61,771 bases of DNA from positions 1 to 61,771 of the forward strand of contig CAMOMI010000002.1 in assembly GCA_946619755.1 (NCBI GenBank), written 5' to 3'. The position numbers were made by a program, and so were the translations under genes. The notes beneath the pieces were generated by a model, which was given only the letters and a program-made list of their open reading frames with translations, was not told where the DNA came from and did not search any database. This stretch comes from an uncultured Clostridia bacterium (GTDB lineage Bacteria; Bacillota_I; Bacilli_A; RF39; UBA660). Positions 38,933 to 43,746 of this stretch are shown here, piece by piece (position 1 is the first letter of the stretch; each line of letters starts with the position of its first letter).

Positions 38933-39154
38933 TTATTCTTCAGTTTCTTCTTCGACTGAATTAACTTCTGAATACTCTACAGTATCTATATTTGCATTTC
39001 TTCTAGCTCTAATCTTTTTAACTACTATGTAACCTAATCCTACTAGTGCTGTAACACCTAATGCTACTCCACCAATTTTTACTAGTTTACTTGCAGTTGA
39101 AACTTCAGCTACTTCTGCAACTTCTTGTACTGTTTCTAATTCTGTATTTTCCAT
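38933..39154 (-). CDS. Small single-pass membrane protein
   Basis: 73 aa with TM KIGGVALGVTALVGLGYIVV and acidic ends. Confidence 0.6.
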   Translation of the reverse strand: MENTELETVQEVAEVAEVSTASKLVKIGGVALGVTALVGLGYIVVKKIRARRNANIDTVEYSEVNSVEEETEE

Positions 39155-39179
39155 AGTCGTGAAACCTCCTTTCTTTTAT

Positions 39180-39212
39180 GTCTCATTATAGTATATGCGT
39201 TTTTCGCGTTTA
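39180..39212 (-). promoter_or_regulatory. Phage promoter-like motif P9
   Basis: Minus strand TTAAACGCG-AAAAACGCATATACTAT-AATGAGACA. Confidence 0.55.
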
Positions 39213-39215
39213 AAT

Positions 39216-39986
39216 TTATATAAGTTTATCGAAGTCATACTTCGGACTTATATCTACATCAAATACAATACATGGTTCATCTTCTTCAGTTATACATGCA
39301 TTGAAAGTTGGTTCTATTAAACCATTATCTAAATTCCAACCCATAAGATCGCCATTTTTAATATCATCTAAACCTAATTCGCCATAGAATTCGTTTAATG
39401 AAATATAATGGTCATATGTAAGTCGTCTATTAAGTTTATTAATAGTTTGTTTAATTGTTTCAATATCTGATTTAAAATATCTACCAGATATCATATCTTT
39501 ACATAATGTATTACCTTTTGCAGTAACAATTATTTGTTTTGGAGAAGGTTGATCATTATTAACATCATCTTGAGCGATTTTGTCTCTTATCTCTTGTTCC
39601 TTTCTCTCACCAAGAGTATCTATTACTTTATCTCTATATCTAATTAATGTACGCTCAGATAAAGCATATGCTGCTCCTAATGCTGCGTTTCGTTTGTAAT
39701 TTACTGCACTCGCACCGATTATGCATGCACTTGATGCTATAAAACTTAAAGCTGATGGTAAATATGGTTTCCATATAGTTATAAATGTTTCTTTAGGTGT
39801 CAAATGATTTACATTTAGTTGAATCTTTTTATCTTCTACTAGCATCATAGCTTTTGGTGTAGCTCTGACAGCAGAAATAACAGAATAGCCCATACCAACT
39901 ATTCCGACACCTGTTAAAATTTCAGGACTATGTTTTCCTAAAAATTTCTTCGAATTACTGAAAAATTGTGTAATTTTTTGATTCAT
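39216..39986 (-). CDS. Two-TM membrane protein, paralogue family member B
   Basis: Start moved to ATG 39986 (MNQKITQFF) because the track start lies inside the upstream terminator hairpin. AGAAAGGAG is the RBS. Confidence 0.65.
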   Translation of the reverse strand: MNQKITQFFSNSKKFLGKHSPEILTGVGIVGMGYSVISAVRATPKAMMLVEDKKIQLNVNHLTPKETFITIWKPYLPSALSFIASSACIIGASAVNYKRNAALGAAYALSERTLIRYRDKVIDTLGERKEQEIRDKIAQDDVNNDQPSPKQIIVTAKGNTLCKDMISGRYFKSDIETIKQTINKLNRRLTYDHYISLNEFYGELGLDDIKNGDLMGWNLDNGLIEPTFNACITEEDEPCIVFDVDISPKYDFDKLI

Positions 39987-40001
39987 ATTATTCTCCTTTC
40001 T

Positions 40002-40029
40002 AAAAAAATTAAAGGACATTGCTGTCCTC
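40002..40029 (-). terminator. Intrinsic terminator
   Basis: Minus strand AGGACA-gcaa-TGTCCT followed by TTAATTTTTTT. Confidence 0.65.
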
Positions 40030-40169
40030 TATTTTGTCAAATCTGCAACTTTAGCATTTACTGCTTCATCGATTAATATTTTTTGTGTTTGGTTTGAAGC
40101 TATACCACTAACTATAGTACCAGCTAATGTTAAACCTAAACCAACAATAGTTAAAATCTTTGGGTTCAT
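40029..40169 (-). CDS. Small membrane peptide (46 aa, below the track cutoff)
   Basis: MNPKILTIVGLGLTLAGTIVSGIASNQ.... AGGAGG is the RBS. Bracketed by promoter motif P8 and a terminator. Confidence 0.5.
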   Translation of the reverse strand: MNPKILTIVGLGLTLAGTIVSGIASNQTQKILIDEAVNAKVADLTK

Positions 40170-40191
40170 AAATTTGCCTCCTTTACAATAT

Positions 40192-40224
40192 TTTCCATTA
40201 CAGTATAAGTTTTTTTCGCGTTAT
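40192..40224 (-). promoter_or_regulatory. Phage promoter-like motif P8
   Basis: Minus strand GATAACGCG-AAAAAAACTTATACTGT-AATGGAAAA. Confidence 0.55.
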
Positions 40225-40979
40225 CTTAATATGATACTTTCAGCATCGAAACATACATTCGGTTCTGTAATAGCGTTAATAATAAATACATCTACTCTGT
40301 CTTCTCGATCGCCACCAACATCCATCATACATAGTTGATTCTCAAATTTTATTTCGAAGTATGTTCCATTATCATACCAACCTATTTCGTTAGCATATGA
40401 AAGTGGTTCCAAACCTAATAATCGGTAAAAATCGTTCATCGTAACTGCTCCACTTGCTGCAAATTCTGCATTAAGTTGATCCTCAGCTCGAAGAACATCT
40501 TCGATACTACTTTCAAAATATCGCAAAGATTGATAATCAAAGAATAACTGACCATCTTCACTTAAATCTTTTATCATCATAGGATGATCATTTAAGATTG
40601 CGTTTCTAACTTTTTGGTCAGCATCTTCACCATATAATTCTTTAGTCTTTGCTACATATTCTTGATGTAAATTATTTAGTGTTGCATATGCTGCTGTTAA
40701 TGCTGTTTGTGTTTTAGTATTTAAAATATGTAAGCTTAAAATTGTGCCTATTGTTGTAATGCAACTTATAGCCGTAGGTATATAGGGTTTCCAAGCCACT
40801 TTAACTACTTCTTTCTTCGTTAACTTAGAACCTTTAACTGCTTCAGCTTCATTAATTAACTTAAGAGCTTTCGGAGTTGCCTGAATACCTAATGCAGTTG
40901 ATGCGATTACGCCTACCATGCTTAAACCTGTTAAGATTACTGGTGAGTACTTTTTTAATAAAAATTGTGCGTTTGTCAT
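40221..40979 (-). CDS. Two-TM membrane protein, paralogue family member C
   Basis: KKYSPVILTGLSMVGVIASTALGIQATPKA and KPYIPTAISCITTIGTILS...ALTAAYATL parallel members A and B. Confidence 0.65.
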   Translation of the reverse strand: MTNAQFLLKKYSPVILTGLSMVGVIASTALGIQATPKALKLINEAEAVKGSKLTKKEVVKVAWKPYIPTAISCITTIGTILSLHILNTKTQTALTAAYATLNNLHQEYVAKTKELYGEDADQKVRNAILNDHPMMIKDLSEDGQLFFDYQSLRYFESSIEDVLRAEDQLNAEFAASGAVTMNDFYRLLGLEPLSYANEIGWYDNGTYFEIKFENQLCMMDVGGDREDRVDVFIINAITEPNVCFDAESIILR

Positions 40980-41011
40980 GAATATTTTTTCTCCTTTCTT
41001 TTAAAAATATC

Positions 41012-41049
41012 TATCAAAAAACTAAAAGGACTTTGAAATTAGTCCTTTA
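41012..41049 (-). terminator. Intrinsic terminator
   Basis: Minus strand AAAGGACT-loop-AGTCCTTT followed by TAGTTTTTTG. Confidence 0.65.
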
Positions 41050-41064
41050 GTGTGAGATAGCGTA

Positions 41065-41427
41065 TTACCTCTTATTCGCTTTGGGAATGGTTCCACTTAA
41101 AATATTACGTCCTAATGTACTTGTTATGGTTGATGACTGATCAAATTTAAATGTTAAGATTATAGAATAGATTGATACTGCTGTAGTTACTGTAAAAGTC
41201 GTTATGTCTATTACTTTGTTAATTATGTCTTTTCTCGATTCAGATTTTAGTTGTTTTTCATTTATAACTTTATTCGACTCAATCTGAGCAAGTTCGATTA
41301 ATTCCTTTCTAATATTATCACGTTCTTTTACTGCATCTTCATAGTATTCACTACCCTTGTCTAAACCTTTAATAAGACCAGATACATTTTCATAATCGCT
41401 CCATAGCGCATTCTTAATTTTGTGCAT
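41065..41427 (-). CDS. C-terminally anchored protein
   Basis: 120 aa with hydrophobic ITTFTVTTAVSIYSIILTF near the C-terminus. Confidence 0.6.
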   Translation of the reverse strand: MHKIKNALWSDYENVSGLIKGLDKGSEYYEDAVKERDNIRKELIELAQIESNKVINEKQLKSESRKDIINKVIDITTFTVTTAVSIYSIILTFKFDQSSTITSTLGRNILSGTIPKANKR

Positions 41428-42921: not shown

Positions 42922-42954
42922 TTTCTATAATACAATATGCAATTTTCGCGAAAA
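42922..42954 (-). promoter_or_regulatory. Phage promoter-like motif P4
   Basis: Minus strand ATTTTCGCG-AAAATTGCATATTGTAT-TATAGAAAT. Confidence 0.55.
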
Positions 42955-42981
42955 TAAAAAGAAGAAGATTAGTCATCTTCT
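42950..42981 (-). terminator. Intrinsic terminator
   Basis: Minus strand GAAGAT-gacta-ATCTTC followed by TTCTTTTTATTTT, running into P4. Confidence 0.6.
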
Positions 42982-43181
42982 CCAAAAGTTCCTATGTAAC
43001 CTAATGTTCCTAAGAATATTATAAATATTGGTCCTGTCACATCTGTCTCTCCAATTTCTTTAAGTATAAACATAGACAATATTCCTAATAGTATAGACAT
43101 TAATGCATAGAATCGATCGGTCAATACAATCTTTCTCTTTCTTAAATGTTTTCCTTTGTTTCTTTCTTGTTTAATTTTCAT
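42969..43181 (-). CDS. Small two-TM membrane protein
   Basis: 70 aa with FYALMSILLGILSMFILK and GPIFIIFLGTLGYIGTF. Confidence 0.6.
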   Translation of the reverse strand: MKIKQERNKGKHLRKRKIVLTDRFYALMSILLGILSMFILKEIGETDVTGPIFIIFLGTLGYIGTFGEDD

Positions 43182-43199
43182 AATTAATACCTCCTTAGT

Positions 43200-43232
43200 T
43201 TTCTATAATATAACATGTATTTCACGCGAAAA
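43200..43232 (-). promoter_or_regulatory. Phage promoter-like motif P3
   Basis: Minus strand TTTTTCGCG-TGAAATACATGTTATAT-TATAGAAAA. Confidence 0.55.
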
Positions 43233-43256
43233 ATAAAAGAGTCAATTAAGACTCTC
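43230..43256 (-). terminator. Intrinsic terminator
   Basis: Minus strand AGAGTC-ttaatt-GACTCT followed by TTTATTTTT, running into P3. Confidence 0.7.
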
Positions 43257-43260
43257 TATT

Positions 43261-43443
43261 TTATTCGTTAACACATAGATGATAATACACATATGCTTCT
43301 TCAACTGTTAAATCTTTGATACGATTAAAAATTTCATTTGGGCTATATCCTTCCTTCATTAATTTAGAATACTTTCCTAAACGAATTTGTTTAACCTTCT
43401 CTGGCTTTTCAATTGCTTTGAATCTTTCTACAATATTTTCCAT
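43261..43443 (-). CDS. Hypothetical small protein
   Basis: 60-aa ORF in the track. Confidence 0.55.
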   Translation of the reverse strand: MENIVERFKAIEKPEKVKQIRLGKYSKLMKEGYSPNEIFNRIKDLTVEEAYVYYHLCVNE

Positions 43444-43452
43444 CTTTTATTA

Positions 43453-43487
43453 CCTCCTATATAATAACATGTATTTCACGCGAAAAA
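43453..43487 (-). promoter_or_regulatory. Phage promoter-like motif P2
   Basis: Minus strand TTTTTCGCG-TGAAATACATGTTATTA-TATAGGAGG. The downstream box overlaps the RBS. Confidence 0.5.
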
Positions 43488-43511
43488 AGAAAGAGAGTCT
43501 GTTAAGACTCA
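43484..43511 (-). terminator. Intrinsic terminator
   Basis: Minus strand GAGTCT-taac-AGACTC followed by TCTTTCTTTTTT, running into P2. Confidence 0.65.
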
Positions 43512-43678
43512 TCTATCTTATTAAATACTTTCTTTAATTCATCAACGGAACCTTTTTTAATATTTATGATAATGTTACCATTATTTTTTCTTTGATTTTC
43601 AGCTCCAGCATCATAAATAATTTTACCAACTCCGAATAAGAATAAAGTTGTAAATACTCCATATAATAGATTTTTCAT
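43502..43678 (-). CDS. Small N-terminally anchored or secreted protein
   Basis: Start at 43678 (MKNLLYGVFTTLFLFGVGKII) after AAGAGGTGA. Confidence 0.55.
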   Translation of the reverse strand: MKNLLYGVFTTLFLFGVGKIIYDAGAENQRKNNGNIIINIKKGSVDELKKVFNKIDES

Positions 43679-43713
43679 AATAATCACCTCTTTCTTTCAA
43701 AAATATACTATTT

Positions 43714-43746
43714 TTTCTATAAAAAGGCATGAAAAACACGCGAAAA
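43714..43746 (-). promoter_or_regulatory. Phage promoter-like motif P1 (first unit after the lysis cassette)
   Basis: Minus strand TTTTTCGCG-TGTTTTTCATGCCTTTT-TATAGAAAAA. Confidence 0.55.

Follow-up and report, generated by a model that had tools for sequence, protein, structure and literature searches.

We analyzed a family of promoter-like motifs in a phage genome recovered as contig CAMOMI010000002.1 from an assembly of an uncultured Clostridia bacterium (GCA_946619755.1). The whole stretch of 61,771 nucleotides (nt), here called the window, begins and ends with the same 50 nt and is therefore a circularly closed contig of ~61.7 kilobases (kb). Its G+C content is ~30% and its open reading frames (ORFs) are almost all on the minus strand, which also carries every feature of the window described below. 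In the order of this strand, the terminase gene (11030..12775) comes first and is followed by the portal and protease/capsid genes and by tail genes that cross the contig junction. The holin (45281..45571) and endolysin (43938..45161) genes come later, and a strong intrinsic-terminator-like hairpin of 11 pairs (43904..43932) closes this late/lysis operon just upstream of the first motif copy, P1. The region containing the motif cluster (43746..38933) is next after the lysis genes. A D5-like primase gene (31935..35954) is located after three paralogues of PHROG family 2152. Further along is a phage sigma-70-family gene with regions 2 and 4 (26096..26845), which has distant similarity to the SPO1-group phage sigma factors. 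An endonuclease gene, an exonuclease gene and a gene encoding a polymerase-like protein of 1002 amino acids (aa; 16423..19431) close the gene order before a non-coding stretch.

A sequence-only reading of the window had described 11 copies of the pattern CGCG-N17-(T/A)AT(A/G)GA on the minus strand, named P1 to P11, and all 11 were found where it had placed them. Counting the first C of CGCG as motif position 1, this base is at 43742, 43482, 43228, 42950, 42681, 41990, 41493, 40220 and 39208 in P1 to P9, at 31782 in P11 and at 20421 in P10. The spacing of 17 nt is common to all copies. The literal pattern matched only eight of them, all on the minus strand, compared with 0.05 matches expected from shuffled sequences; P2 (TATAGG), P9 (AATGAG) and P10 (TATGAG) keep the spacing and deviate in the last two bases. 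The window contains 16 CGCG tetramers, 11 of which belong to motif copies. We then ran on the window a weight matrix that had been trained on related loci only. The matrix recovered exactly these 11 sites, with scores of 21.7-42 bits, and no other site in the window reached 8 bits. The copy number and strand bias that the sequence-only reading had proposed to check were thus 11 copies on the minus strand and none on the plus strand, with none inside genes and, as had been claimed, none in front of the late operon. In 100 Markov-simulated genomes, a single match of at least 15 bits was found in all (~0.01 per genome). All 11 sites were located wholly within the 6.7% of the genome that lies outside minus-strand ORFs of at least 45 aa, and every copy was followed by a Shine-Dalgarno sequence and a start codon.

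P1 (TTCGCGTGTTTTTCATGCCTTTTTATAGAA; 43715..43744, 21.7 bits) precedes a gene for a single-pass membrane protein of 58 aa (43502..43678). P2 (43455..43484, 23.1 bits), P3 (43201..43230, 28.4 bits) and P4 (42923..42952, 27.6 bits) abut terminators at 43510..43495, 43257..43236 and 42983..42961, respectively. They are followed by the genes 43261..43443, 42969..43181 (two transmembrane segments) and 42697..42894 (one transmembrane segment), and the Shine-Dalgarno sequence of the first of these, GGAGG, begins at motif position 26. The best match to the family consensus was P5 (42654..42683, 42.0 bits), which abuts a hairpin (42708..42692) with its T-run and is followed by a leader of ~95 nt and the genes 42225..42569 and 41992..42213. 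This leader (42570..42653) is unusually long, as most other copies have 15-35 nt, and it could be regulatory. P6 (41963..41992, 22.4 bits) and P8 (40193..40222, 25.0 bits) are located directly after the stop codons of 41992..42213 and 40221..40979. Each precedes a gene for a transmembrane protein (41786..41929 and 40029..40169) and then a terminator (41767..41744 and 40031..40010). Terminators also follow the genes of P7 (41466..41495, 29.8 bits; gene 41065..41427, terminator 41048..41025) and P9 (39181..39210, 22.1 bits; transmembrane protein gene 38933..39154, terminator 38917..38887). Outside the cluster, P11 (31755..31784, 22.9 bits) is located downstream of the primase gene and before the gene 31366..31740, whose Shine-Dalgarno sequence AAGGAGA begins at motif position 28. 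P10 (20394..20423, 34.7 bits) heads an operon consisting of the endonuclease gene (20004..20297), the exonuclease ORFs (19798..19992 and 19439..19774) and the polymerase-like gene.

Terminator-like hairpins were enriched in the motif-cluster region (22 compared with 3.8 expected). A hairpin with a T-run adjoins each of P2, P3, P4 and P5, as the sequence-only reading had it. Its description of nine terminator-promoter cassettes held in part: four promoters abut terminators and more terminators follow the genes of P6 to P9, but the other five copies of the cluster have no abutting terminator. In seven of nine cases, the gene directly following P1 to P9 encodes a small protein with predicted membrane-spanning segments. 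The PHROG family 2152 paralogues (37291..38205, 39216..39986 and 40221..40979) have a hydrophobic N-terminal segment, and two of the three are located directly behind terminators without a motif copy of their own.

To describe the motif beyond the window, we used 80 related viral contigs that had been fetched with the primase as anchor (G+C content 26-45%). A loosened pattern, CGCG-N17-WAT followed by three purines (W, A or T), gave 239 matches on the coding strand of these loci and 4 on the opposite one, compared with 535 and 0 for the weight matrix. In a separate set of 80 loci anchored on the polymerase-like gene, the motif was found 111 times, always on the coding strand. From 211 distinct sites of the primase-anchored loci, the consensus TT-CGCG-AAAAAA-ACA-NNNN-CTaTwAT-G-AAA was derived. 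Several bases beyond the imposed pattern were found to be strongly conserved, namely C12 (96%), A13 (89%), T21 (95%) and G25 (94%). The motif can be divided into three blocks: positions -1 to 4 hold TTCGCG, which is replaced by TTCGCA or TTCACA in relatives, an A-rich stretch leads up to ACA at 11-13, and positions 18-24 read C-T-a-T-w-A-T, followed by the conserved G25 and a run of purines. Conservation spans position -1 to ~31. Some sublineages lack CGCG and have TTCGCA, or TTCGC and another base, while the remaining motif is kept. The two subclasses that had been proposed are present in this genome; across the family, however, the TATAG form is a minority and the sites seem to make up one motif with a variable position 25/26. 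A hairpin with a T-run was found directly upstream of 34% of the sites in relatives, compared with 0.7% of control positions.

The motif was also identified in three cultured phages. Lactococcus phage CHPC971 has 11 copies (consensus TTCACAwGTTTTACA-N4-CTATAGTAGAAAG), Streptomyces phage Scap1 has six (TCGCAAGTTTTACA-N4-TTATAGTGAGACCCCTAC) and Arthrobacter phage Gordon has 11 (TTCGCAAGAATTACA-N4-TTATAATGAGAAG). These copies always come after the lysis genes and are often directly behind terminators. The matrix built from gut phages alone recovered six of the 11 copies in Gordon, with no match on the opposite strand. A megablast search of the region against cultured phage genomes gave no match. 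The closest relative from a cultured collection is MT835495.1 (GenBank "Bacteriophage sp.", represented by two of the related contigs); past ~40 kb this record has a much higher G+C content and dense CGCG, and it lacks the early region, so that it may be a chimeric assembly or contain a junction of phage and host DNA.

In relatives the motif also heads tRNA genes, which indicates that it acts in transcription rather than translation. In three related viral contigs, a suppressor-type tRNA gene (anticodon TTA, reading UAA) begins 2-6 nt after the conserved G (L043:1190-1265, L046:1713-1787 and L055:1704-1779), and two further contigs (L019 and L061) have odd tRNA-like genes at this position. tRNA genes are absent from the window itself. 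From their sequence, placement and conservation, the 11 sites are very probably promoters of one phage-specific class, located ahead of genes and often behind terminators. This agrees with the proposal made in the sequence-only reading, including its remark that they are unlike the TTGACA/TATAAT consensus. We found no description of the motif in the literature searched, which covered the motif sequences and the promoters of 1706-like, cluster AU and Rhodococcus phages, although a paper on ReqiPoco6 and the first description of phage 1706 may contain one. The cluster AU papers note many small membrane proteins and do not mention promoters. Promoters specific for a phage polymerase in terminator-bounded cassettes are a known feature; this motif, this enzyme family and the apparent built-in recognition by helix-turn-helix (HTH) domains are not.

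We analyzed the position of the motif relative to downstream features in relatives to locate the transcription start. Among 434 sites with a recognisable gene start, the core of the Shine-Dalgarno sequence begins at motif positions 24-32 in 124, and start codons pile up at positions 41-45. The first base of the tRNA genes is at position 27, 28, 29 or 31. Ribosome-binding sites and tRNA genes thus follow the TAT-like block by 2-8 nt. At sigma-70-type promoters, transcription starts ~5-9 nt past the -10 hexamer. Such a layout would put the start at position 30 or later (33 or later if the hexamer is aligned as in the sequence-only reading), which is contradicted by the positions of the Shine-Dalgarno sequences and tRNA genes. 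Dependence on an upstream transcript is not an option for P2, because it is directly behind a terminator. Complete Shine-Dalgarno sequences and tRNA transcripts require a start at about G25, and no later than position 27. This suggested that the RNA starts at or near the conserved G25, inside the motif, and not 5-10 nt downstream of it as had been expected; for the TATAG variant, position 25 or 26 would be the start. Conservation that runs through the start site gives the layout seen in T7-type promoters. The motif shares with these a purine start and a contiguous conserved sequence that includes the start site, a resemblance that is functional only.

The 1002-aa protein encoded downstream of P10 is the proposed reader of the motif. 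It has a SGADFDGD loop and an HTH domain at each terminus. The N-terminal HTH domain spans residues ~88-140. The C-terminal one (~959-1000) is sigma region-4-like, and in a Pfam scan it matched Sigma70_r4 and Sigma70_r4_2 at ~1e-6. The sequence ADFDGD at residues 532-537 corresponds to the DxDGD metal-binding loop of two-barrel RNA polymerases. SGADFDGD (S530-D537) was unchanged in all 11 diverse homologues compared, which come from phages of the gut, Streptomyces and Arthrobacter and go down to 42% identity. The family is present in the genomes of 250 cultured phages, has over 8000 homologues from metagenomes, and is the signature HTH protein of the phage supergroup, which infects Firmicutes and Actinobacteria. 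Nearly all loci with sufficient flanking sequence had a top-scoring motif copy ~950 nt upstream of the polymerase-like gene. This copy is the equivalent of P10, and it heads the same endonuclease-exonuclease-polymerase operon in phage Gordon. A published HHpred analysis reports a link of the protein to RdRP/YonO-type enzymes, with 95.7% probability for Pfam RdRP (bioRxiv 10.1101/842583). The sequence-only reading had named a YonO-like RNA polymerase among the possible readers. The 1002-aa protein is the option that fits, but it has no detectable homology to YonO apart from sharing the DxDGD loop, so that "YonO-like" is at best a statement about class and not about family membership.

We therefore consider a mechanism in which the motif is a promoter read by the 1002-aa protein, acting as a single-chain polymerase, with the start at about G25. 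Judging from the sequences compared, we favor this full mechanism with moderate confidence. The HTH domains of the protein would contact boxes centred near -23 (TTCGCG) and -13 (ACA), which are about one helical turn apart and on the same face of the DNA. With the T/A block (-6 to -1) melted, the RNA would begin at or beside G25. The nine promoters P1 to P9 would drive short cassettes right after the lysis genes, most of which encode small membrane proteins, and many of these cassettes would be bounded by hairpin/T-run terminators. Three genes that have a terminator upstream and no promoter of their own (40221..40979, 39216..39986 and 38223..38858) would be expressed by read-through. P11 would restart transcription past the primase gene. 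P10 would drive the endonuclease-exonuclease-polymerase operon, so that the polymerase would control its own gene. The late genes could be reached by read-through from P10 across the joined genome ends, by another promoter class, or, in this phage, by the accessory sigma factor. On a broader claim our judgment is evenly balanced: that this would be the first promoter for the large HTH-flanked DxDGD family, with a single-polypeptide two-barrel polymerase that uses its own region-4-like domains, recognizes a tripartite 30-base-pair (bp) motif kept almost without change in phages of two bacterial phyla, and drives its own gene from the best-consensus copy. Such a polymerase may already be required in the earliest minutes after infection, and would in that case have to arrive with the virion.

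Several results weigh against this mechanism. The polymerase identity of the 1002-aa protein is deduced from its catalytic-type loop and family links, and the RNA polymerase fold was not confirmed by our searches. When the 1002-aa family was aligned to YonO with hhalign, the probability was below 1%, and phmmer and hmmsearch searches against PDB sequences matched only the HTH domains. The AlphaFold model was mediocre, with a predicted local distance difference test score (pLDDT) of 70.5, a predicted template modelling score of 0.51 and a pLDDT below 50 for the catalytic loop. Its top Foldseek matches were maize RDR2 (first, at E = 0.55), the Pol IV-RDR2 complex and Pol II, with E-values of 0.55-2.5 that are not significant. 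The primase and the polymerase-like gene were seen together on only three sampled contigs, and the motif counts come from separately anchored loci. These phages share many genes, and another conserved factor could be the true reader. A polymerase that is transcribed from its own promoter would have to obtain a first dose from the virion or from host transcription. In addition, no motif is located before the late operon, whereas the YonO that has been studied transcribes late genes from one promoter.

The alternatives differ in which protein reads the sites. The sequence-only reading had listed the phage sigma factor first and a host alternative sigma factor as a further option, and had compared the motif with the 6-17-6 geometry of sigma-70 promoters. 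On closer alignment, only 14 nt separate the upstream box from the TATAAT-like block (positions 19-24), and the A that would correspond to "-11" is present in only 50% of the 211 sites and missing in five of the 11 window sites. The hexamer chosen in that reading (positions 22-27, WATGAA) is spaced by 17 nt but lacks the T at -7, and in Scap1 and CHPC971 its sequence is AGTGAG or AGTAGA. Scans of the region for sigma-70 consensus sequences showed no enrichment (91 matches compared with 100 expected, and 129 compared with 118). Reading by host core polymerase with the phage sigma factor would make use of a protein that the window does encode, with regions 2 and 4, and CGCG-N17-WATRGA (R, purine) is formally compatible with 6-17-6. 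However, of the 80 motif-rich primase-anchored loci, only 6-8 were found to contain a sigma-like ORF. No homologue was found in Scap1, in Gordon (minus its first 10 kb) or in CHPC971 (minus its last 4.4 kb), where a second profile round did not change the result, and the annotations of these three phages list no sigma factor. The layout is also at odds with the start-site constraint. This version is already largely refuted and we give it very little credence; by its distribution, the sigma gene is accessory and apparently not needed for the motif. A host alternative sigma factor is not a plausible reader: the same motif is present in phages of Actinobacteria, Lactococcus and gut Firmicutes, and no host-specific alternative sigma factor is common to these hosts. 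Less strained, and still unlikely, is that host RNA polymerase carrying the primary sigma factor reads the sites as early promoters, with the T/A block as the -10 element, while the phage polymerase expressed from P10 transcribes the late operon from a different, unrecognised promoter, as in the logic of T7 or SPbeta. The sequence at positions 19-24 is TATAAT or TATAGT in the three cultured phages (Gordon, Scap1 and CHPC971) and TwTwAT in those of the gut, and the motif heads the post-lysis region and the polymerase operon, which are the places of host-read early promoters in T7-like schemes. The late operon is without the motif and YonO is a late-gene polymerase (PMC5467207); moreover, a 1.3-kb non-coding gap follows the polymerase gene, comparable to the gap between yonN and yonK in SPbeta. 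Nevertheless, the sites have no TTGACA-like -35 element at 16-18 nt and instead a conserved upstream box at 14 nt, the "-11" A that is essential to primary sigma factors is present in only half of them, and the region is not enriched in sigma-70-like matches. A start 6-8 nt past position 24 would remove the Shine-Dalgarno sequence in ~29% of the sites and would truncate the tRNAs that begin at 27-29. TTCGCR, ACA and G25 play no part in recognition by primary sigma factors, yet they are kept across two host phyla.

The remaining alternatives assign another role to the protein or to the sites. The 1002-aa protein, or another conserved phage DNA-binding protein, could be an activator or sigma-like factor that redirects the host core enzyme, and not a polymerase. 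The two HTH domains, the C-terminal one resembling sigma region 4, would suit such a factor, as would the failure of Foldseek, the YonO profile and the PDB searches to confirm a polymerase fold; TTCGCGAA is an 8-bp palindrome, as in some dimeric binding sites. We regard this as rather improbable: the SGADFDGD sequence that is invariant from gut phages to actinophages would be needless in a pure DNA-binding factor, the start would be 1-3 nt past the T/A block, unlike the geometry of host polymerase, and the published HHpred link points to the RdRP family. The sites might also not be promoters at all and act as oriented operators or as RNA-level processing or translation elements. The stoperators of Cluster A mycobacteriophages are strictly oriented and intergenic, and the motif matches them in both respects. 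Here, however, no integrase/repressor (lysogeny) module was seen among the window ORFs, and the genes are nearly all on one strand. The sites occur only at the 5' ends of genes, often right behind terminators where transcription must restart, and they precede tRNA genes as well. The motif contains a meltable T/A block and a conserved purine start, and the late operon, to which stoperator-like sites would be expected to extend, has none of them. A non-promoter function is thus highly improbable.

We compared the proposed system, in which the 1002-aa protein would read the motif as a single-chain polymerase, with known systems. Promoters of the T7, T3 and SP6 type are recognized by single-subunit RNA polymerases and extend over ~23 bp, from -17 to +6. 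As in these phages, one contiguous, strand-specific and highly conserved motif is repeated before gene cassettes, among hairpin terminators. In both, the part for recognition is upstream, a TATA-like part that melts comes immediately ahead of the start, and the start itself is a conserved purine (TATA|G). In contrast to the T7 type, the motif here is longer (~30 bp, with three blocks at 10-bp intervals) and unrelated in sequence. This phage also has no T7-family polymerase among its listed ORFs of at least 700 aa, as a Pfam scan of these five ORFs (705, 881, 1002, 1339 and 1851 aa) gave no RNA_pol (T7-type) match, and its putative enzyme would belong to the DxDGD two-barrel class.

YonO of the Bacillus prophage SPbeta is a single-chain two-barrel RNA polymerase that transcribes the late operon from a single start; the paper on it leaves its promoter, and whether it requires further factors, to later work (PMC5467207). 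Like YonO, the 1002-aa protein is a phage-encoded single polypeptide of ~100 kDa with a DxDGD catalytic loop, and its gene directly precedes a long non-coding gap and then the late/terminase operon; in SPbeta the gap after yonO/yonN is 1.7 kb. Unlike YonO, it has terminal HTH domains and its putative promoters precede non-late genes. No comparable motif was found in the yonN-yonK gap of SPbeta, and because the yonO-yonK region lacks one, the mapped YonO start cannot calibrate the motif described here. The nearest worked example is Thermus phage P23-45, whose two-barrel polymerases gp96 and gp64 have conserved motifs within 30 nt upstream of the start. There, starts were mapped and binding was observed by chromatin immunoprecipitation sequencing, and the co-occurrence of motif and polymerase across related phages was part of the assignment (10.1101/2022.12.01.518664). 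That system likewise combines a single-chain two-barrel phage polymerase with start-adjacent motifs, but the proteins, hosts and motifs are different (AT-rich and GC-rich in P23-45), and the present system is known from computation alone. With promoters of the sigma-70 family, including those of the phage sigma factors SPO1 gp28 and gp34, the motif shares an upstream box and a T/A-rich downstream box, and the region-4-like HTH domain may read the upstream box. It differs from them in its 14-nt spacing, its weak "-11", a probable start 1-3 nt past the T/A block and its lack of dependence on a sigma gene.

For phage RNA polymerases of the single-chain two-barrel type, the way in which promoters are located is still to be explained, and the motif provides a concrete candidate promoter, with a predicted start, for a very abundant enzyme family. 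The motif system is carried by culturable phages, including Arthrobacter phage Gordon, Streptomyces phage Scap1 and the 1706-like Lactococcus phages. If the proposed mechanism is true, it would explain the transcription program of a widespread group of human gut phages. It would also provide a compact polymerase-promoter pair for Firmicutes and Actinobacteria that could be used as an orthogonal expression tool, and the motif could help to annotate where operons start, as well as tRNA genes and genes for small membrane proteins.

An AT-rich, ORF-free stretch of 1.3 kb (14830..16170) separates the polymerase-like operon of the window from its first late gene. We searched this gap for a conserved late promoter, and only a GC-rich, cos-like block was found to be conserved. 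The block (in particular 15069..15139; GGGGGAGGGG...CCCCCCGG...CGCGCCGG...CCCCGGAGG) has 84% identity over 73 nt with a block in the distant relative MT835495. It is probably a cos/packaging site, because the genome ends of cultured relatives fall between these two gene sets. Two other parts of the window, 1..4360 and 61100..61771, have no complete minus-strand ORF in the ORF list. One ORF probably spans the ends of the circular contig and is most likely the tape-measure gene. Finally, the Cas4-like exonuclease gene downstream of P10 seems to be split into ORFs of 64 aa (19798..19992) and 111 aa (19439..19774). Only the second ORF has a match to the PHROG exonuclease profile, which covers the C-terminal half of the profile, and phage Gordon has a single gene of 186 aa. 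The split could be due to a frameshift, a sequencing error or decay of the gene.

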